A DNA stretch of 64,000 bases from Candidatus Eiseniibacteriota bacterium (GCA_046598045.1 JBKJJJ010000215.1:31617-95616); one strand, 5' to 3'. Numbered from the stretch's first letter, positions 3,625-46,378 are shown. Notes: a model not told the origin generated them from the sequence alone. A program made the numbers and translations.

Positions 3625-4734
3625 ATGCAAGGACGCGTTGCGCTCTCCCTGACCGCGATCTTCACCCTCCTGGCCATCGGCCTGTCGTTCACTTCCGCAG
3701 CACCGCTCCTGGTTTTCGGCGTGGCGGCGCTCGCGATCCTCGGCCTGGCGGCCGTGCTCGGCGGGGCGACCGAGGAACTCGGCGCCCATCTCGGGCATCG
3801 CGTCGGCGGCATCCTCAACGCGACCGTGGGCAACGTGGGCGAGATCATCATCGCCGTGTTCGCGCTCAAGGCCGGCCTGATCGACCTGGTCAAAGCCTCG
3901 ATCACGGGCTCGATCATCGGCAACGTGCTGCTCGTGTTCGGCGCGAGCGTCACGGTGGGCGGGCTCAAGCACGGGATCCAGCGCTTCGACGCGCGCTCGG
4001 CCGGGATGAACGCCGTGCAGCTCGTGCTCGCCACGATCGGCCTGGTCGTGCCCGCGATGTTCGCCTTGAGCGTCGGCGGCGAGCACGTGGCGCAGAACTT
4101 CCTGCCGATCGAGAGCGTGACGCTCGGGGTCGCGGGGCTCCTGGTCGTGCTCTACGGACTGTCGGTCTACTATGACCTGACGCGGCCCATGGGCGCCGTC
4201 CGCTCGGGCGACGAGATGCACACCGCCGACGCCGCGGAGGCGGCCGCGCGCCGCCACTGGTCGCGTCCGCTCGGGATGCTGGTGGTCGCGGCCGCGGCGC
4301 TGGCGTGGGTTTCGGAGATCCTGGTCGGGGCGGTCGAGCCGGTCGTGCATGAACTGGGCGTCAGCCAGTTCTTCCTCGGCATCGTCGTGATCCCGATCAT
4401 CGGCAACCTCGCCGAGCACCTGGTCGCGCTCCAACTCGCGCGCAAGAACCAGATGGATTTCGCGATCGCGGTCTCGCTCGGCTCGGCGACCCAGGTGGCA
4501 TTGTTCGCGGCGCCGCTCCTGGTCTTCCTCTCGATCCCGCTCGGCCACCCGCTGACGCTCGTGTTCACGCCCCTGGAGGTGATCGCGGTCGGCATGGCCG
4601 CGCTCATCGCGGCGCTGATCGCCATCGACGGCGAATCGAACTGGCTTGAGGGCGTGCAGCTGATCGCGGTCTACCTGATCCTCGCGGTGGCGTTCTTCTT
4701 CCTGCCTTTCGGCCCCGCGCCGGTGCACCCTTAA
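3625..4734 (+). CDS. cax: Ca2+/H+ antiporter (CAX/ChaA family)
   Basis: Alpha-repeats 'LNATVGNVGE' and 'PIIGNLAEH', C-terminal 'DGESNWLEG', about 11 hydrophobic segments. Confidence 0.92.
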   Translation: MQGRVALSLTAIFTLLAIGLSFTSAAPLLVFGVAALAILGLAAVLGGATEELGAHLGHRVGGILNATVGNVGEIIIAVFALKAGLIDLVKASITGSIIGNVLLVFGASVTVGGLKHGIQRFDARSAGMNAVQLVLATIGLVVPAMFALSVGGEHVAQNFLPIESVTLGVAGLLVVLYGLSVYYDLTRPMGAVRSGDEMHTADAAEAAARRHWSRPLGMLVVAAAALAWVSEILVGAVEPVVHELGVSQFFLGIVVIPIIGNLAEHLVALQLARKNQMDFAIAVSLGSATQVALFAAPLLVFLSIPLGHPLTLVFTPLEVIAVGMAALIAALIAIDGESNWLEGVQLIAVYLILAVAFFFLPFGPAPVHP

Positions 4735-39856: not shown

Positions 39857-40545
39857 ACGCATCCCAGGTCGTGGTCGAGGCACGCCACGCGACCAAGCTC
39901 TACCCGATGCCCGCAGGCGACGTGCGCGCGCTCAGCGACGTGTCGCTCGCCGTGCCGTCGGGCGACTACCTCGCGCTGATGGGCCCGAGCGGCTGCGGCA
40001 AGAGCACGCTCCTCAACCTCTTCGGCGCGGTCGATCTCCCGAGCACCGGCAAGGTCGTGCTCGAAGGTCAGGATACCGGTGTGCTCGGGGACGGCGAGCG
40101 CACCGCGCTACGGCTCACGCGCGTCGGGTTCGTGTTCCAGCGCTTCTTCCTCCTGCCCATGCTGACGGCGTACGAGAACGTGCTGCTGCCCATGCTCGAG
40201 GCGCGCATGCCGCGCGCCGAGCGCGAGGCGCGCGCGCTCGAGCTGCTCGAGTACGTCGGCCTCGCCGGCCGCCGGGACCACCGCACCGCGCAGCTCTCGG
40301 GCGGGGAGATGCAGCGTGTCGCGATCGCGCGCGCGCTCGCGAACCGGCCGCGCCTGCTGCTCGCCGACGAGCCGACCGGGGAACTCGACGAGGCCACCGG
40401 CGACGTCATCGCCCGCCTGCTCGCGCGCCTCTCGGCCGACGGGCTGACGATCGTGCTCGTGACCCACAACCCCGTGCTCGCGGCGCAGGCGCGTCGCACG
40501 CTCCACCTGCGCGACGGGCGCGTGGTCGAGGAGACCTACAGCTGA
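39853..40545 (+). CDS. ABC ATP-binding protein (LolD/MacB type)
   Basis: TTGA overlap; 'GPSGCGKST', 'LSGGEMQRVAIARAL', 'LLADEPTG', 'VTH'. Confidence 0.95.
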   Translation: MNASQVVVEARHATKLYPMPAGDVRALSDVSLAVPSGDYLALMGPSGCGKSTLLNLFGAVDLPSTGKVVLEGQDTGVLGDGERTALRLTRVGFVFQRFFLLPMLTAYENVLLPMLEARMPRAEREARALELLEYVGLAGRRDHRTAQLSGGEMQRVAIARALANRPRLLLADEPTGELDEATGDVIARLLARLSADGLTIVLVTHNPVLAAQARRTLHLRDGRVVEETYS

Positions 40546-42056
40546 TGTGGCTCCTCGCGCGCCGCAACCTCGCCGTCCGGCCCGGACGGACCGCGCTGTT
40601 CCTGCTCGGCTTCGCGCTCGCGGTGGGCGTGATGATCGCGCTCCTGTCGGTCGGCGAGGCGATCGTCGAGCAGGCGCGCGACAAGGACCTCGTCGGCGGC
40701 GGGGACATCGTGCTCGTGCCGCAGGGCACCGACGTCGACGTGCTCAAGCTCGGCGGCGTGACCGCGATGTTCTCGACCGTGCCGAACGCACGTTTTCTGT
40801 ACCGCCAGTTGCTGCGCGGCCCGCGCTTCGTGCGCGACGTCGAAGCCGCCGCGCCGACCTGGGCCGGACGCCCGGTCTACCTGCGCGCGCGCGGCAGGGT
40901 GATCCAATCCCTCGCGAGCGCCGAGGTCCCCGCGCTCACGCGCGCGCTCCGGGGCAAGTCCCGGCTGCCGAAGGAATGGCGCGACAGCCCCGGGGAGACG
41001 GCATTCGCGCGCCTCGAAGGTCCCGAGCTCTACGCCGAGATGGATCACTGGCACCGGCCTCCGGCCGCGGCCAGGGAGGCCGGGCACTGGGCCGAGTGGT
41101 ACTACTTCAACCTCGCCGATCCGGTGACCGGCGCGTATGCGTATCTCTCGTTCTTCGTCGCCGGCGACCCGTGGAGCGGCCGCGCGCTCGGCAGCCTGTC
41201 GCTGCAGCTCGGCGGCCGCGGCCGGCCGCCCCGGCGCTACGTGTGCGCGGTCCCGATCGACTCGAGCGCGGTTCCGCTCGACGGCGTGGGCGCGCGCCTC
41301 GGCCCCGCGACGGTCACGTTCGAGGACGGGCGATACCGACTGCGCGCGCGCTTCAGCGACCTGCTCGGCGGGGGACCGGTCGACGTCGACCTCACGGTGA
41401 CGCCCGCGCCGCGCGCCTACTACCCGCCGATCACGATCGCCGGCGCGGACGGCTTCGAGTCGGGCTACGTCGTGCCTGCCGCGATCGCACGGGGCGACGG
41501 CACGGTGAGCGTCTCCGGCACGCGCGTCGTGTTCGCCGGCGTGCCCGCGTACCACGACCACAACTGGGGCGTGTGGAAGAGCACGCGTTGGGACTGGGGC
41601 CAGGTCCAGAGCACGGACCGTGCGTTCGCCCTGGTCTACGGCGCCGTGCACGCGCCCGAGCTCGAGCGCGCCGGCAACAGCGGACGCCGCTTCGTACTGG
41701 TGACCGCGCACGACGGCTTCCTCGGCTTCCTCGAGCCGCGCGCGTTCGTGTACTCGGGCTGGCGCCCCGGCCCGCGCGTCGGCGCGACCCAGGTGGCGGC
41801 CCCCTCCGAGATCCGCTTCGACGCGGTGAGCGAGGACGATTCACTCACGGTGCGCTTTCGCGTGGAGGACGTGGTCGCCTCGCGGCCACCGGGCGACGCG
41901 GGCGAGCCGGTCGCCATGCGGCTCGGGGCGGGGCGGGCGTTCCTGCAGATGCGCGGCACGTACGAGGTGCGGGGGAGGGTGGGCGGTCGCGCGGTCGCAT
42001 TCGACGCGCCGGGCGCGGCGGAGACGTTCGTCGAGCTCGACCGACATCCTGATTGA
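40545..42056 (+). CDS. Permease N-terminal half fused to an AttH/CrtC (tocopherol-cyclase-like) domain
   Basis: 'LARRNLAVRPGRTALFLLGFALAVGVMIALL' TM1; later 'WAEWYYFN', 'AYHDHNWG', 'RWDWGQ'. Confidence 0.8.
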   Translation: MWLLARRNLAVRPGRTALFLLGFALAVGVMIALLSVGEAIVEQARDKDLVGGGDIVLVPQGTDVDVLKLGGVTAMFSTVPNARFLYRQLLRGPRFVRDVEAAAPTWAGRPVYLRARGRVIQSLASAEVPALTRALRGKSRLPKEWRDSPGETAFARLEGPELYAEMDHWHRPPAAAREAGHWAEWYYFNLADPVTGAYAYLSFFVAGDPWSGRALGSLSLQLGGRGRPPRRYVCAVPIDSSAVPLDGVGARLGPATVTFEDGRYRLRARFSDLLGGGPVDVDLTVTPAPRAYYPPITIAGADGFESGYVVPAAIARGDGTVSVSGTRVVFAGVPAYHDHNWGVWKSTRWDWGQVQSTDRAFALVYGAVHAPELERAGNSGRRFVLVTAHDGFLGFLEPRAFVYSGWRPGPRVGATQVAAPSEIRFDAVSEDDSLTVRFRVEDVVASRPPGDAGEPVAMRLGAGRAFLQMRGTYEVRGRVGGRAVAFDAPGAAETFVELDRHPD

Positions 42057-42144
42057 CGAATGACCGGGAGTGGCGCGAGGCTCCCGGTGCTCGCCGCACG
42101 CGGCCGCGAAGTGTGAAACCGGATTCCACCCGAGGAGGTCGTTC

Positions 42145-42753
42145 GTGATCACGGTTGCTCCCATCCAGCTCGAGGGCCATGGCGTGCGCCTCGAGCCCCT
42201 GACCGTCGAGCACTCCGAGGGCCTTGCCGCCGCGGCGTCCGACGGTCACCTGTGGGAACTCTGGTACACCTCGGTGCCGGCGCCGGGGGAGGAGGCCGGG
42301 TACGTCGCGACCGCGCTCGAGGGGCAACAGGCCGGTCACATGCTCCCGTGGGCCGTGCGCGACCTCGCGTCGGGCAGGATCGCGGGGACGACGCGCTACC
42401 ACGACATCGTGCCGGAGATCGATCGCGTCGAGATCGGGTGGACGTGGTACGGCGCGTCGTGGCAGCGCACGCACGTCAACACCGCGTGCAAGCTGCTCCT
42501 GCTGGGCCACGCGTTCGACACGCTCGGCTGCCGGGTGGTCGGCCTGCGCACGGACAATTTCAATTTCGCGTCGCAGCGCGCGATCGCCGCGCTCGGCGCG
42601 AAGCCGGACGGCGTGCTGCGCCACCACACCGCGCGGCGGGATGGAACGGTGCGCGACTCAGTCCTGTTCAGCATCCTGGCGGCGGAGTGGTCGGACGTGA
42701 AGCGGCACCTCGCCGTGCGGTTCGCCCGCGCGGCCGCGCGGGCGCTGCGGTAG
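42145..42753 (+). CDS. GNAT N-acetyltransferase (RimJ/RimL-like)
   Basis: 'VEIGWTW', 'VNTACKLLLL.HAF', 'N.ASQRAI..LGA..DGVLR'; GAGGAGG RBS. Confidence 0.9.
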   Translation: MITVAPIQLEGHGVRLEPLTVEHSEGLAAAASDGHLWELWYTSVPAPGEEAGYVATALEGQQAGHMLPWAVRDLASGRIAGTTRYHDIVPEIDRVEIGWTWYGASWQRTHVNTACKLLLLGHAFDTLGCRVVGLRTDNFNFASQRAIAALGAKPDGVLRHHTARRDGTVRDSVLFSILAAEWSDVKRHLAVRFARAAARALR

Positions 42754-42853
42754 GTCCGCGCGCCCGCGATTGGCGCGGCCTCCGGGCCGGTCGCGGATTC
42801 CCTGAAAATCACGCTCGACAAGCGAGGTCCCTCCGGGGCATTCTGCGGAGTCT

Positions 42854-42872
42854 ATTGAGACTGAGTCTCAAT
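42854..42872. promoter_or_regulatory. Perfect 9-1-9 inverted repeat, Fur-box-like operator
   Basis: ATTGAGACT-G-AGTCTCAAT, an AT-rich patch ending 79 nt upstream of the apbE-porin gene. Confidence 0.72.
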
Positions 42873-42951
42873 TGCAGCGCGAGCGGGGGGCGACGGCCGC
42901 CGCCCGCTCGGGTCCTCGCCACTCGGGCTCCCCGCCCGCACGGAGGTCGTC

Positions 42952-45285
42952 GTGAGATTGCGCCTCGCCTCGCTGATCGCAGTCCTTTCCCTTGCCGCAC
43001 TCCCCAGGGGCGTCCCGGCCGCGGAGGCGACGAGTCCCGCGATCAACGCGCCCGCAAGCGTCACCGTCGAACGCGAGCGCGTGCTCATGGGCACGCGCTG
43101 CTCGATCGTCCTCCAGGGCGACGACGTTGCGGCGCTCGAGTCGGCGGCGACCGCCGCCTTCGAGACCATCGCCCGCCTCGAGGCGGTGGCGAGCAACTGG
43201 CGCCCGGACTCCGAGCTCGCCCGCTTCACGCGCGCGTCCTCCGCACGCTCCGGCCGGGCGGTCCCCGTCTCTCCGGACCTGTTCGACGTGCTCGACCGCT
43301 CGACCGCGTGGTGCATTCGTACCGGCGGTGCGTTCGACGCCACGGTCGAGCCCCTGACCCGCGCGTACGACCTCCGCGGCGACGGACGCATTCCCGGCGA
43401 GGCCGAGCGCGTCGCGGCGTCGAAGCTGGTGCGCGGCGCCGACGTGATGCTCGATGCCGAAGCGAAGACGGTGTCGCTGCCCGCGCGCGGCATGGCGTTC
43501 GATCTCGGCGGCATCGCGAAGGGTTGGGCGCTCGATCGCGCCGTCGGGACGCTGCGCGCGCACGGCGTGACGCGAGCGCTGGTCAATTTCGGCGGGCAGG
43601 TCTACGCACTCGGCGCGCCCGTCGGCGCCGACGCGTGGGCGGTCGAGATCGCCTCGCCCGACGAGCGCGGGCAGGGCGTGGTGACGCTGCGGCTCAAGGA
43701 TCGTTCGCTCGCGACCAGCGCGGCGTCCGAGCATGCGCTCCAGGTGGGCGGCACATCGATCAACCACATCCTCGATCCACGCACCGGACGCCCGGCGGCT
43801 TCATGGGGCTCGGCGAGCGCGATCGCGGCCACGGCGACCGATGCCGACTGCGCCTCGACCGCGCTCTACGTGATGGGTGCCGCGATGGGGCTGGCGTGGG
43901 CCAAGGGCCAGCCCGACCTCGAGGCGGTGATGCTCACGCCCGACCCGTCCGCCCCCGGCGGCGTGCGCGTGGAGCGCTCGAGCGGTCCGGTCGCCGCCTT
44001 GTTCCCCGCGGCCCCGGCGCTGGCCGCGCAGGCCGGCGATGCCGCGACCCCGGAACCGAGCAATCGCGAGCTGGCGCGCCGGCTGGACGTGCTGGCCGGC
44101 GAGGTCGACGATCTCAAGATCGGCGACGCGGCGGCGCCGCCGGTCGAGAGCCACGCCGGCCTCGGCCCTGCGGCGTCGAAGGTCTATGGCGTCAAGCGCG
44201 GCGTCTCGATCGGCGGCTACGGCGAGATGAGATACGAGTCGTTCCGCCAGAACGCGGACGGCGGCACGCCCGCGGGCAAGAGCGCGCGCCTCGACTTCGT
44301 GCGCGCGATCACCTACGTGGGCTACAAGTTCTCGGATCACGCGCTGTTCAACTCCGAGATCGAGTTCGAGCACGCGTCGACCGAGCTCAGCGGATCGGTC
44401 TCGGTCGAGTTCGCGTACCTCGACTTCCTCGCGAAGCCGGCGCTCAACCTGCGGGCGGGCATGCTGCTCGTGCCGATGGGCTTCCTGAACGAGCTGCATG
44501 AGCCGCCCACGTTCCTGACGTCGAGCCGACCCGAGGTCGAGCGCAACATCGTGCCGTCGACCTGGCGCGCGAATGGCGCCGGGCTCCATGGCGAGTTCGC
44601 CAATGGCCTGTCGTATCGAGCGTTCGTGACCGAGAGCCTGCGCGGCGTCGCCGACCCGGGTGCGGGGATCGAAGGCATCACCGCCGGGAGCGGCCCCTAC
44701 GAGGCGCGCCAGAACGGCTCCGAGAGCATCTTCGACGAGGTTGCGTTCACCGGCCGGGTCGAGTGGCAGGGCGGCGGCGCGCGCTTCGGCGCATCGGCGT
44801 TCACGGGCGGCACCGCCCAGAACGCGACCACGACGCTCGGCGAGGACTTCACCGCGCGCGCGACCATCGTCGAGGCGCATGGCGAATACAAGAACCACGG
44901 CCTGTGGGTGCGGGCGCTCGGCGCGCGCGGCATCGTCGATGAGGCCGCGCTGCTCAACGACGCGAACGGCTTCGTGGGCGACGAGTCGGTGGGTTCGAGG
45001 AACTACGGGGCGTACCTGAACGTGGGTTACGAGCTGATGCGCCAACTCGGCAAGGGGTCGGGCCTGGCGCTCTGGCCGTTCGTCCAGTACGAGCGCTACG
45101 ACACGCAGGACGAGGTGCCCGTGGGCTTCACCAAGAACCCGGCGAACGACCGCAAGTCCTGGACGTTCGGCGCCGCGTTCTACCCGGACCCGCAGATCGT
45201 GCTCAAGGCGGACTACCAGAACAACTGGACGCCCAACGGCTCCGCCGTCGACCGCCTCGGCGTGTCGCTGGGGTACCTGTTCTGA
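42952..45285 (+). CDS. ApbE (FAD:protein FMN transferase) fused to an outer-membrane porin-like beta-barrel
   Basis: ApbE motifs 'LMGT', 'GGAFDATV', 'DLGGIAKG', 'LATS', 'HILDPRTG', 'ADCASTA'; then 'SIGGYGE', 'FNSEIEFEH', 'VEFAYLDF' and terminal beta-signal 'LGVSLGYLF'. Confidence 0.85.
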   Translation: MRLRLASLIAVLSLAALPRGVPAAEATSPAINAPASVTVERERVLMGTRCSIVLQGDDVAALESAATAAFETIARLEAVASNWRPDSELARFTRASSARSGRAVPVSPDLFDVLDRSTAWCIRTGGAFDATVEPLTRAYDLRGDGRIPGEAERVAASKLVRGADVMLDAEAKTVSLPARGMAFDLGGIAKGWALDRAVGTLRAHGVTRALVNFGGQVYALGAPVGADAWAVEIASPDERGQGVVTLRLKDRSLATSAASEHALQVGGTSINHILDPRTGRPAASWGSASAIAATATDADCASTALYVMGAAMGLAWAKGQPDLEAVMLTPDPSAPGGVRVERSSGPVAALFPAAPALAAQAGDAATPEPSNRELARRLDVLAGEVDDLKIGDAAAPPVESHAGLGPAASKVYGVKRGVSIGGYGEMRYESFRQNADGGTPAGKSARLDFVRAITYVGYKFSDHALFNSEIEFEHASTELSGSVSVEFAYLDFLAKPALNLRAGMLLVPMGFLNELHEPPTFLTSSRPEVERNIVPSTWRANGAGLHGEFANGLSYRAFVTESLRGVADPGAGIEGITAGSGPYEARQNGSESIFDEVAFTGRVEWQGGGARFGASAFTGGTAQNATTTLGEDFTARATIVEAHGEYKNHGLWVRALGARGIVDEAALLNDANGFVGDESVGSRNYGAYLNVGYELMRQLGKGSGLALWPFVQYERYDTQDEVPVGFTKNPANDRKSWTFGAAFYPDPQIVLKADYQNNWTPNGSAVDRLGVSLGYLF

Positions 45286-45845
45286 GAGCCGCTCGCATCG
45301 CAGCCCTGCTCGCGTGCCTGCTTGCACTGCTCCCGGCGCTGGCGGGCGCGCGCATCCTGATGACGCGCGAAGCGGCACTGGCGCAGGCGTTCGGGGTCGA
45401 GGCGCGCGTCGAGGTGCGCACCGTCTACCTCACGCCCGATCAGGTGACGCGCGTCGAGCGGGCCGCCGGCGCGAAGCTCGCGTCGCCGCGCGTGGTGGCA
45501 TATCGTGGCGCGGTCGGCGATTCGCTCGTCGGCACCGCGTATCTCGACACTCACCCGGTGCGCAGCCAGATGGAGACGATCATGATCGTGGTCACGGCCG
45601 CGGGGAAGGTCGGCGCCGTCGAGGTGCTCGCGTTCAACGAGCCGAACGATTATCTGCCGCCGCCGCGCTGGCTCGAGCGCTTCGACGGGCGTGCATTGTC
45701 GAAGGACCTCAAGCCCGGGCTCGCGGTGCCCAGCCTCGCCGGCGCGACGCTGACGGCGCGCGCGGTGTCCGCCGCGGTGCGGCGCACGCTCGCACTGCAC
45801 GCGGTGCTCGCGCAACTCGCGCCCGCCGCGGCGGGGGTCCGATGA
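45282..45845 (+). CDS. Secreted FMN-binding (flavinylation substrate) protein
   Basis: Frame is open from CTG 45282 (CTGA overlap), which adds a signal peptide; flavinylation-like motif 'LAGATLTARAV'. Confidence 0.8.
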   Translation: MRAARIAALLACLLALLPALAGARILMTREAALAQAFGVEARVEVRTVYLTPDQVTRVERAAGAKLASPRVVAYRGAVGDSLVGTAYLDTHPVRSQMETIMIVVTAAGKVGAVEVLAFNEPNDYLPPPRWLERFDGRALSKDLKPGLAVPSLAGATLTARAVSAAVRRTLALHAVLAQLAPAAAGVR

Positions 45846-46378
45846 AGTACCTGCAGTCGGGGGGGTTCCGCAACCATCCGCTGATGCGGCTCACGCTCGG
45901 CTGCACGCTCTTGCTGCTGGCCGGGCTGTGGGTCACGACCGCGCTCATGTACTTCAAGAACATGACCCTCGATCCGCGAACGGTGATCGCCTACTACCGC
46001 GGTGACGAGGCGCGCTTTCTCGAGCCGCGCACCTACGGATCGATGCTCGAGGTCACGCACATGCACCTGCCGATGATGGCGCTCGTGCTGCTCCTGCTGA
46101 CGCACCTCGCGATCTTCCTGCCGTGGTCCCAGCGGGCGCGCGCCTGGCTCATTGTGAGTACGTTCATGTTCGCGCTGGTGGGCGAGGCAGCCGGGTGGCT
46201 GGTGCGGTTCGTCAGCCCGGGGTTCGCGCCGCTGAAAGTGGCGTGTTTCCTTGGTCTCGAGGCCACGCTCGGGGGACTCCTGGTTGGGCTTGCGCTCTAC
46301 CTGGCCTCCGCCGATCGGCCGGGCGCGCGGGCGCGGACGGCGGGAACCGCGATGCAGGGCGAGGAGTACGGCGAGTAG
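45842..46378 (+). CDS. Four-TM membrane protein with His motifs (possible heme b carrier)
   Basis: C-terminal part of ORF 45314..46378; ATGA overlap; 'EVTHMHLPMM...LLTHL'. Confidence 0.75.
   Translation: MKYLQSGGFRNHPLMRLTLGCTLLLLAGLWVTTALMYFKNMTLDPRTVIAYYRGDEARFLEPRTYGSMLEVTHMHLPMMALVLLLLTHLAIFLPWSQRARAWLIVSTFMFALVGEAAGWLVRFVSPGFAPLKVACFLGLEATLGGLLVGLALYLASADRPGARARTAGTAMQGEEYGE

Follow-up and report, generated by a model that had tools for sequence, protein, structure and literature searches.

Flavinylated periplasmic proteins form an emerging class of bacterial electron carriers, several of which are linked to iron assimilation by gene context only. The closest described relatives of the operon reported here are iron-assimilation clusters flavinylated by ApbE (FAD:protein FMN transferase; FMN, flavin mononucleotide), of the PepSY-like/FoxB, MsrQ-like, DUF4405-like and P19/FTR1-associated types. 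According to the available text of PMC8238504 and PMC11334425, these clusters encode ApbE together with a secreted FMN_bind substrate and a small membrane partner, stand under Fur control, have iron-transporter genes as neighbours and are proposed to carry out assimilatory ferric reduction. Our operon resembles them in these respects. It lies in a 64,000-nt stretch of DNA, hereafter the window, from a Candidatus Eiseniibacteriota bacterium (GCA_046598045.1, JBKJJJ010000215.1:31617-95616), and consists of a Fur-like palindrome followed by gene 1, in which apbE is joined in frame to an outer-membrane porin, gene 2, encoding an FMN_bind protein, and gene 3, encoding a protein with four transmembrane (4-TM) helices (Table 1). 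Compared with the clusters in the available text of those two papers, it differs in its membrane partner, which is not PepSY, MsrQ, NapH, DsbD, NQR/RNF or DUF4405 but Aq_1264_TM-like (b561-like at other loci), and in that a dedicated porin is an obligatory part of the module. We give a probability of roughly 60% to the reading that this is a Fur-repressed three-gene iron-acquisition operon, the fused variant of a widespread four-gene module; the role in iron uptake or reduction itself we infer.

In porin-cytochrome systems such as Cyc2, a cytochrome-porin fusion, and MtrCAB, an outer-membrane barrel has a redox module attached to it or lodged inside it, for iron redox chemistry. Unlike these, the domain fused in the window is a maturation enzyme without haem motifs, and electron passage through the barrel is not indicated. 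Attachment porins of the OmpM type (Veillonella OmpM1, PDB 8bys; Foldseek E 1.9e-11) resemble the gene 1 product in that a coiled-coil stalk joins a 16-strand barrel to a periplasmic domain at the N-terminus, but there the N-terminal domain is an SLH peptidoglycan anchor, not an ApbE enzyme, and the sequences are unrelated. ApbE as the N-terminal domain of a larger protein is known from the trypanosomatid fumarate reductase, where, in the available text of the ApbE review PMC12052999, enzyme and flavinylation target make up one protein of the cytosol or glycosome, whereas the fusion partner in the window lacks an [S/T]GA[S/T] motif and the likely target is a separate protein. A literature search retrieved nothing on ApbE flavinylation with a porin and nothing on aq_1264, and the main texts of PMC8238504, PMC11334425 and PMC12052999 mention no barrel or porin, although their supplements may list such clusters. 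The only paper found to touch the module is that of Rodionov et al. (2004; PMC545781), whose available part describes psp, a hypothetical Fur-regulated porin of Geobacter metallireducens and Desulfuromonas that lies behind two tandem FUR boxes and shows weak Porin_O_P similarity; homologues occur in Aquifex and uncultured bacteria, and ferrous iron was proposed as its cargo. As compared by description only, psp may belong to the same barrel family as the window porin. Both stand behind FUR-type boxes of 7-1-7 shape; that part of the paper mentions neither a fusion of psp nor a partner of the ApbE, FMN_bind or 4-TM kind. At a locus with a stand-alone barrel (L009:5814-5897) we also saw two tandem boxes, AATGAGATTGAGTCTCAAT and ATTGAGACTGAGTCGCAAT, before the barrel gene, as reported for psp.

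Table 1. Features of the operon, with positions counted from the first nucleotide of the window.
Feature	Coordinates	Strand	Basis
Possible promoter, TCGACA-17 nt-GCATTC	42815..42843	+	Inspection; ends ~10 nt before the box
19-bp perfect palindrome ATTGAGACTGAGTCTCAAT, predicted Fur-type operator	42854..42872	.	7-1-7 core TGAGACT-G-AGTCTCA
Gene 1, ApbE-porin fusion, 777 aa	42952..45285	+	GTG start, GGAGG at 42942-42946; open reading frame, homologues, AlphaFold2 model
Predicted signal peptide, residues 1-26, without lipobox Cys	42952..43029	+	Read from the sequence; low pLDDT at residues 1-32
ApbE (FAD:protein FMN transferase) domain, residues 37-352	43060..44007	+	PF02424, Foldseek, invariant residues
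Linker, relic porin signal peptide PVAALFPAAPALAAQA plus flanks	43978..44031	+	Aligned to stand-alone barrels; pLDDT <50 at 355-368
Short helix, coiled-coil stalk, residues 371-388, ELARRLDVLAGEVDDLKIG	44062..44115	+	AlphaFold2 helix; ELxRRIDxLxxExExxKLG segment in stand-alone barrels
Beta-barrel porin domain, 16 strands, residues 417-777	44200..45282	+	AlphaFold2 strands, Foldseek, invariant set, C-terminal Phe
Gene 2, predicted secreted FMN_bind protein	45282..45845	+	PF04205, 61-sequence alignment, start-codon analysis
Gene 3, 4-TM inner-membrane protein, Aq_1264_TM-like	45842..46378	+	Alignment, AlphaFold2, ESM Atlas; ATGA overlap with gene 2

Gene 1 encodes a single 80-kDa polypeptide, to which protein P0001 is 100% identical; close relatives carry the label Candidatus Eisenbacteria, and fused homologues extend down to 37% identity. 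A reading made from the DNA sequence only (hereafter the sequence-only reading) had described a complete ApbE in frame with a beta-barrel ending in Phe, and Pfam (for ApbE), AlphaFold2 and Foldseek agreed on this architecture. PF02424 matched residues 46-327 over profile positions 1-266 of 266 (E 8e-67, 226 bits against a cut-off of 25.6). The AlphaFold2 model, built on 47 fused homologues (pLDDT, predicted local distance difference test, 87.5), placed ApbE at 37-352 and, after a disordered segment (355-368) and a helix (371-388), 16 strands (417-776), with Phe as the terminal residue. In Foldseek searches the N-terminal half retrieved Treponema pallidum Ftp, Listeria FmnB and other ApbEs (4ifw, 7f2u, 1vrm, 6nxi), with E between 1e-23 and 1e-19 (4ifw 1.5e-23) and target TM-scores of 0.82-0.88. 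H272, D299 and T303 are invariant in all 47 fused homologues, and S256 is S or T. The catalytic set of Vibrio cholerae ApbE is Ser241, His257 and Asp285 (available text of PMC12052999), and S256, H272 and D299, compared by spacing, are consistent with it.

The ApbE-barrel fusion is confirmed as genuine. Contigs of two studies cross the junction (43960-44060) in frame. The contig of run X1 spans 43849-44372 with 0 gaps, while that of run X2, 2.3 kb long and from a different study, spans 42802-44931 with 130 substitutions and 1 gap; the sole indel listed for it in this interval is at 42902, 5′ of the start codon. A strain diverged by 130 substitutions, with no coding indel, has thus kept the fusion frame.

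Relatives of gene 1 are encoded in 513 species-level genomes and relatives of gene 3 in 487. We collected 80 loci through gene 1 and 80 loci through the 4-TM protein, and assigned the fusion state by frame and stop analysis at 143 loci. There were 6 true fusions, 74 pairs of separate adjacent genes and 63 loci without apbE directly upstream; in other words, where apbE lies upstream, the genes are separate at 74 of 80 species-level loci and fused at 6 of 80. Five of the fused loci are from Eisenbacteria (L001, L002, L097, L098 and L099, the last on the same contig as L001) and one is from Acidobacteria (L008). By tblastn, ApbE and barrel matches lay near each other at about 50 of the 80 loci, most of them separate genes by the frame and stop analysis. 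The 72 non-redundant separate apbE-porin pairs are tightly packed, with a 4-nt overlap in 37 and a gap of 0-20 nt in 18 (first-start heuristic). Further fused proteins, as the sequence-only reading had led us to look for, were recovered by two routes. The search with the whole gene 1 protein, which is biased toward fusions by a query that is itself fused, gave 81 clusters among the best 120 with at least 695 aa, PF02424 and at least 91% query coverage. A barrel-only profile, searched against 1.84 billion representatives, gave 2460 cluster representatives at E up to 1e-10; among the best 150 of these 2460, 14 were ApbE-barrel proteins of at least 734 aa, six of which had already been found with the fused query and eight of which came from ten newly tested. 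In a FastTree phylogeny of 179 barrel domains, whose fused rows derive partly from the search with the fused query, the window falls within a starred clade of 26 rows, 26 of 26 of them fused, which reaches down to about 47% identity. On this tree the fused state requires 12 changes, where shuffled labels require 45 on average, and starred branches force at least 7 of the 12; as the tree is unrooted, gain and loss of the fusion are not distinguishable on it. Judged by loci and tree, the fusion is a recurrent, lineage-specific minority variant that does not define the system. That it recurs suggests that ApbE and porin also work next to each other where they are unfused.

The linker between the two domains gives a clue to the origin of the fusion. 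Stand-alone barrels begin with a signal peptide ending in A-x-A, followed by a coiled coil (ELERKVDxLTxEIExLKLGE) and then by a conserved GLGPAASKVY. The window linker, PVAALFPAAPALAAQA-GDAATPEPSNRELARRLDVLAGEVDDLKIGD, aligns with the signal peptide, the AxA and the coiled coil of these barrels, and its hydrophobic core and AxA site are decaying among members of the fused clade. Alignment and decay together indicate that the linker had been read correctly from the sequence as a relic signal peptide and a short coiled coil. The linker is a decayed porin signal peptide, and the fusion the product of joining an apbE-porin gene pair.

The C-terminal domain, modelled as a beta-barrel, as the sequence-only reading had expected, and with 16 strands, matched OmpC, OmpU, Omp-Pst1 and OmpM1 in Foldseek at E of about 1e-12 to 1e-11. 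A non-strand stretch after strand 5 (residues 507-538) is of the inward loop type in the model, and the barrel terminates in Phe. Eleven residues (N467, E469, E471, E473, H474, E486, R501, N513, E514, H516 and E517) are kept in 47 of 47 fused homologues and in 34-35 of 35 stand-alone barrels. With Glu alternating along one strand and NELHEPP in the long loop that follows strand 5, the pore of the modelled barrel may have an acidic lining that binds metal. No Pfam family matched the C-terminal 437 residues of gene 1, and none the barrel at E up to 10; of 35 barrels searched with E up to 0.1, none matched PF07396 (Porin_O_P), which gave stray matches only in P0090, P0102 and P0132; and the barrel profile gave nothing meaningful against Protein Data Bank (PDB) sequences. 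The nearest ESM Atlas cluster of the barrel carries PF07396 on 75% of its members. We considered whether the barrel is itself a flavinylation target, like DUF3570, and rejected this, since the window barrel lacks [S/T]GA[S/T] and the motif occurs in only 3 of 47 fused and 4 of 35 stand-alone homologues.

An N-terminal lipoprotein anchor is typical of characterised ApbEs, although not universal. Residues 1-40 of gene 1 contain no Cys and no lipobox. The idea that the barrel replaces the lipid anchor was dropped, as the unfused ApbEs of the module are also without a lipobox (60 of 61 by a crude regular expression).

The perfect 19-bp palindrome that had been noted ahead of the three genes is present, 80 nt 5′ of the GTG start of gene 1, and has the same 7-1-7 shape as the delta-proteobacterial FUR box (dFUR), tTGAAAATCATTTTCAt, given in the available part of Rodionov et al. 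(2004; PMC545781). We counted boxes at 113 non-redundant loci between -400 and +60, allowing at most one mismatch in ten core bases. A box was present at 51 of them, that is 1.15 sites/kb against 0.029/kb in the remainder of the same loci, an enrichment of about 40-fold. The same or nearly the same box stands 5′ of the module in Eisenbacteria, Gemmatimonadota, Acidobacteriota, Planctomycetota, Myxococcota and others. Across five other genomes examined the pattern is rare, and 3 of the 4 best extra sites (L081, L086 and L088) lie immediately 5′ of a feoA-feoB-like pair, confirmed by Pfam for L081 as FeoB_N (9.5e-46) and FeoA. Genes for iron regulators and transporters are also frequent neighbours. 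Among loci found through gene 1, a Fur-family gene (PF01475, 3e-29) lies directly 5′ in 15 of 80, a DtxR-type gene in 8 of 80 and feoA in 4 of 80; among those found through gene 3, fur is seen in 13 of 80, feoB in 13 of 80 and dtxR in 5 of 80. This comparative evidence supports the palindrome as a conserved Fur-type operator tied to iron genes, with predicted Fur binding, and in this the Fur-like assignment of the sequence-only reading holds. The genome itself (3.2 Mb, 70% G+C, 216 contigs, completeness 91.6%) contains two Fur-family genes and 7 additional weak sites at up to 2 mismatches in 12 core bases. Upstream regions compared by eye share TCGACA-N17-(GCATTC / GCATGC / CAATGT) among the window, L001 and L002, from which we propose the possible promoter of Table 1; a consensus promoter scan gave no match.

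Two side observations concern iron permeases. In P0124, a predicted protein of 687 aa, residues 1-199 form an FTR1 iron permease domain and residues 274-687 the barrel; this single open reading frame is probably a read-through and not a true fusion, and is still another iron link. At L027, upstream of position 3787, a gene that ends just before the barrel resembles, by eye, the C-terminal part of an iron permease.

For gene 2 the match to PF04205 is borderline, at 22.0 bits against a cut-off of 22 for a 161-aa reading and 21.6 bits for a 186-aa reading, and there is a weak match to RnfG. An A-G-A-T flavinylation-type site is encoded at 45738-45749. In an alignment of 61 homologues G153 is invariant and A154 is present in at least 90%, while all 21 rows printed have T or S at the acceptor column (T155). 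The genome, 91.6% complete, yielded one ApbE match, the fusion, and one FMN_bind match, gene 2, which therefore look like a dedicated enzyme-substrate pair; the gene 2 protein is a likely flavinylation target of the fused ApbE, as judged from sequence. The start of the gene is unusual. Homologues have a signal peptide followed by a conserved mature N-terminus, VxLTxxEALxxAFP, and the signal-peptide-like stretch of the window is RAARIAALLACLLALLPALAGA, while the first canonical ATG, at 45360, falls inside the mature protein by alignment with homologues. The best candidate start is a CTG at 45282, which overlaps the TGA of gene 1 (cTGA) and is shared with L001; an X1 contig is identical to the window over 44942-45464, which spans this region. 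Of the three overlapping genes described from the sequence, genes 2 and 3 do overlap, by ATGA, whereas genes 1 and 2 overlap only with the non-canonical CTG. Many gene 2 homologues begin at an ATG 26 nt within the barrel gene.

Gene 3 was described in the sequence-only reading as a 4-TM protein with HxH...H and as a haem-b membrane donor, and the evidence divides these two claims. AlphaFold2 modelled four transmembrane helices (pLDDT 81.6), and in 19 aligned sequences of the family one helix carries the invariant H73, H75 and H88, while E56, E70, E115, R122 and K132 are likewise invariant. In the ESM Atlas the protein falls nearest to clusters with PF27139, Aq_1264_TM (score 0.97); Pfam gave no match above cut-off, and Foldseek against the PDB gave no match at E up to 0.001, generic helix bundles only. 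The haem-b pattern of two His pairs on two helices is absent from gene 3. At the same operon position, 19 of 80 loci have an Aq_1264_TM-like gene and 55 of 80 an unrelated 4-TM type (for example L011:8723-9151), with five invariant His and a weak, below cut-off match to cytochrome b561 (E 1e-4). We had considered the two types as divergent homologues and dropped the idea, as hhalign shows no relation (probability 0.4%); profiles of both types gave nothing meaningful against PDB sequences. From sequence, a haem-b role is plausible for the five-His type and unsupported for the window type, in which three His lie on one helix, no fold match was found and no relation to the b561-like type is seen. 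A haem may still be bound between two copies of the gene 3 protein in a dimer.

The module is well conserved as a unit. An FMN_bind gene follows the barrel at 76 of 80 loci found through gene 1, three of the four misses being at contig ends, and a 4-TM gene of either type is present at 74 of 80; among loci found through gene 3, 78 of 80 have the FMN_bind gene and 70 of 80 the barrel. In the preferred reading, Fur would leave an operator just 3′ of the likely promoter when iron is scarce, and the porin, its pore selective for cations, would let an iron species in. At the periplasmic side of the outer membrane, ApbE, held 1:1 beside the porin by the fusion, would attach FMN to Thr155 of the gene 2 protein. 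The resulting flavoprotein would reduce Fe(III) to Fe(II) for import, and the 4-TM protein, donating electrons or carrying metal, would connect the system with the inner membrane. In the overall account given by the sequence-only reading, then, the operator, the fusion, the relic linker and gene 2 as likely target stand, the haem-b donor is unsupported, and uptake or reduction keeps the conditional standing that it had.

Several observations weigh against this reading. At the threshold used, 62 of the 113 loci have no box, and the 3.2-Mb genome contains no second copy of the 19-mer, even with up to 4 mismatches. The same genome (91.6% complete) shows no true FeoB, FTR1 or Nramp, so that the importer would either be encoded in the missing 8% or gene 3 would itself carry the metal. 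Gene 3 has no recognisable redox cofactor site. The orientation of the Glu and His residues toward the lumen was deduced from strand alternation and not from coordinates. In gene 2 the acceptor site reads P-S-L-A-G-A-T, with no Asp and with Ala in place of S/T, and the family consensus has T or S at -3 and no conserved Asp at -6; the full flavinylation motif is therefore not matched, this being D-x-x-[S/T]-G-A-[S/T], in which a D-to-A change has only a minor effect according to the available text of PMC12052999. Finally, no ATG, GTG or TTG precedes the signal-peptide-like stretch of gene 2. Thus, of the secreted FMN-binding protein with a GAT motif that had been described, G153-A154-T155 and a PF04205 score at the cut-off stand, but the signal peptide lacks a canonical start ahead of it.

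Among the rival explanations, it is highly improbable that the fusion is an artefact of assembly or gene calling, or a polyprotein cut by signal peptidase at the relic A-Q-A into ApbE and porin. Unfused pairs do often overlap by only 4 nt, the FTR1-barrel single open reading frame of P0124 is implausible, and some fused proteins, such as P0068, keep a complete internal signal peptide. Yet the contigs of two studies agree, the strain with 130 substitutions keeps the frame, and the all-fused clade holds together over 26 rows down to about 47% identity; the decay of the relic hydrophobic core and AxA within that clade would fit a loss of cleavage. The operator raises a different question, namely whether the box could serve a Fur-family paralogue (Zur, Mur, Nur or PerR), with the module acting on another metal or in oxidative stress. 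Boxes of the Fur family share the 7-1-7 shape, and the genome has two Fur-family genes, but the same motif stands 5′ of feoAB in three other genomes, the neighbours are fur, dtxR, feoAB and FTR1, and the motif resembles the delta-proteobacterial FUR box, so we give this explanation hardly any weight. Fur control would equally suit an iron-sparing switch, in which the flavinylated carrier replaces an iron-containing periplasmic carrier at low iron and has no uptake role, an idea raised in the discussion of PMC8238504, as far as the available text goes. We consider it very unlikely, because it leaves unexplained both the obligatory, specialised porin with its Glu and His residues and the neighbouring feoAB and FTR1 genes.

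The 4-TM protein could be an inner-membrane carrier of Fe(II) or another metal, with the electrons of the flavoprotein coming from a carrier encoded elsewhere. Its invariant Glu, His, Arg and Lys, within the membrane or close to it, would suit this, as would the missing four-His haem pattern, the missing relation to the b561-like type and the fact that FeoB, FTR1 and Nramp were not seen in the genome. However, in other genomes dtxR-feoA-feoB directly follow a gene of the same 4-TM family, so that a separate importer exists there, and the five-His b561-like protein that takes this place at 55 of 80 loci suggests that both types serve electron transfer; a metal carrier thus seems unlikely. At the outer membrane, the module could form a trans-outer-membrane reductive conduit, a flavin analogue of the porin-cytochrome systems MtrCAB and Cyc2, in which the flavoprotein sits at the periplasmic mouth of the porin and reduces Fe(III) bound by the Glu and His residues in the pore, or sends electrons out to mineral iron. 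The inseparability of the barrel and FMN_bind genes (76/80 and 70/80 loci), the repeated ApbE-barrel fusion and the invariant metal-type ligands on one strand face and in the constriction-type loop all speak for a conduit. A 16-strand barrel with an inward loop would nevertheless leave little room for a folded domain of 140 aa, and the module adjoins uptake genes (feoAB, FTR1) and not respiratory genes, which makes a conduit quite unlikely. The most far-reaching reading, tentative and in our view unlikely, is that iron is reduced and imported without TonB by a single outer-membrane machine made of the porin, its tethered ApbE and the flavoprotein, with Fe(III) held on a ladder of Glu and His in the pore, reduced by the docked flavoprotein and passed inward as Fe(II). 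If true, this would be a bacterial outer-membrane counterpart of eukaryotic reductive iron uptake, and the repeated ApbE-barrel fusion would mark a physical complex, also in unfused systems.

We found no description, in the literature searched, of the module as a unit, that is, of a porin with an acidic and His-containing pore, a flavoprotein and a 4-TM protein of either type. The new elements are the fused architecture, with its recurrence and the origin of its linker from a porin signal peptide, and the unusual start of gene 2. The repeated joining of enzyme and porin hints, in the Rosetta-stone manner, at the outer membrane as the place of flavin attachment and probably also of flavoprotein function. 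The carriers of the module belong to little-studied soil and sediment phyla (Eisenbacteria, Gemmatimonadota, Acidobacteriota and Elusimicrobiota), in which iron acquisition is poorly known.

The genes flanking the window operon are unrelated to it: a GNAT acetyltransferase gene lies upstream, and UDG-like and rhodanese genes lie downstream on the other strand. A predicted protein of 1013 aa (P0008) joins a GNAT domain (PF13302) to ApbE and the barrel, its gene call running across the operator region; this architecture indicates that the GNAT gene upstream of the window operon, at 42070-42753, is syntenic in relatives. Farther upstream, 40545-42056 encodes a 503-aa protein whose matches (tocopherol cyclase-like, MacB periplasmic core) were all weak and below threshold. 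Between 48179 and 52626 a Y-family polymerase (IMS domains, 3.5e-39) is directly followed by a DnaE2-like homologue of the DNA polymerase III alpha subunit (3.6e-71), a pair that looks like an error-prone repair cassette.

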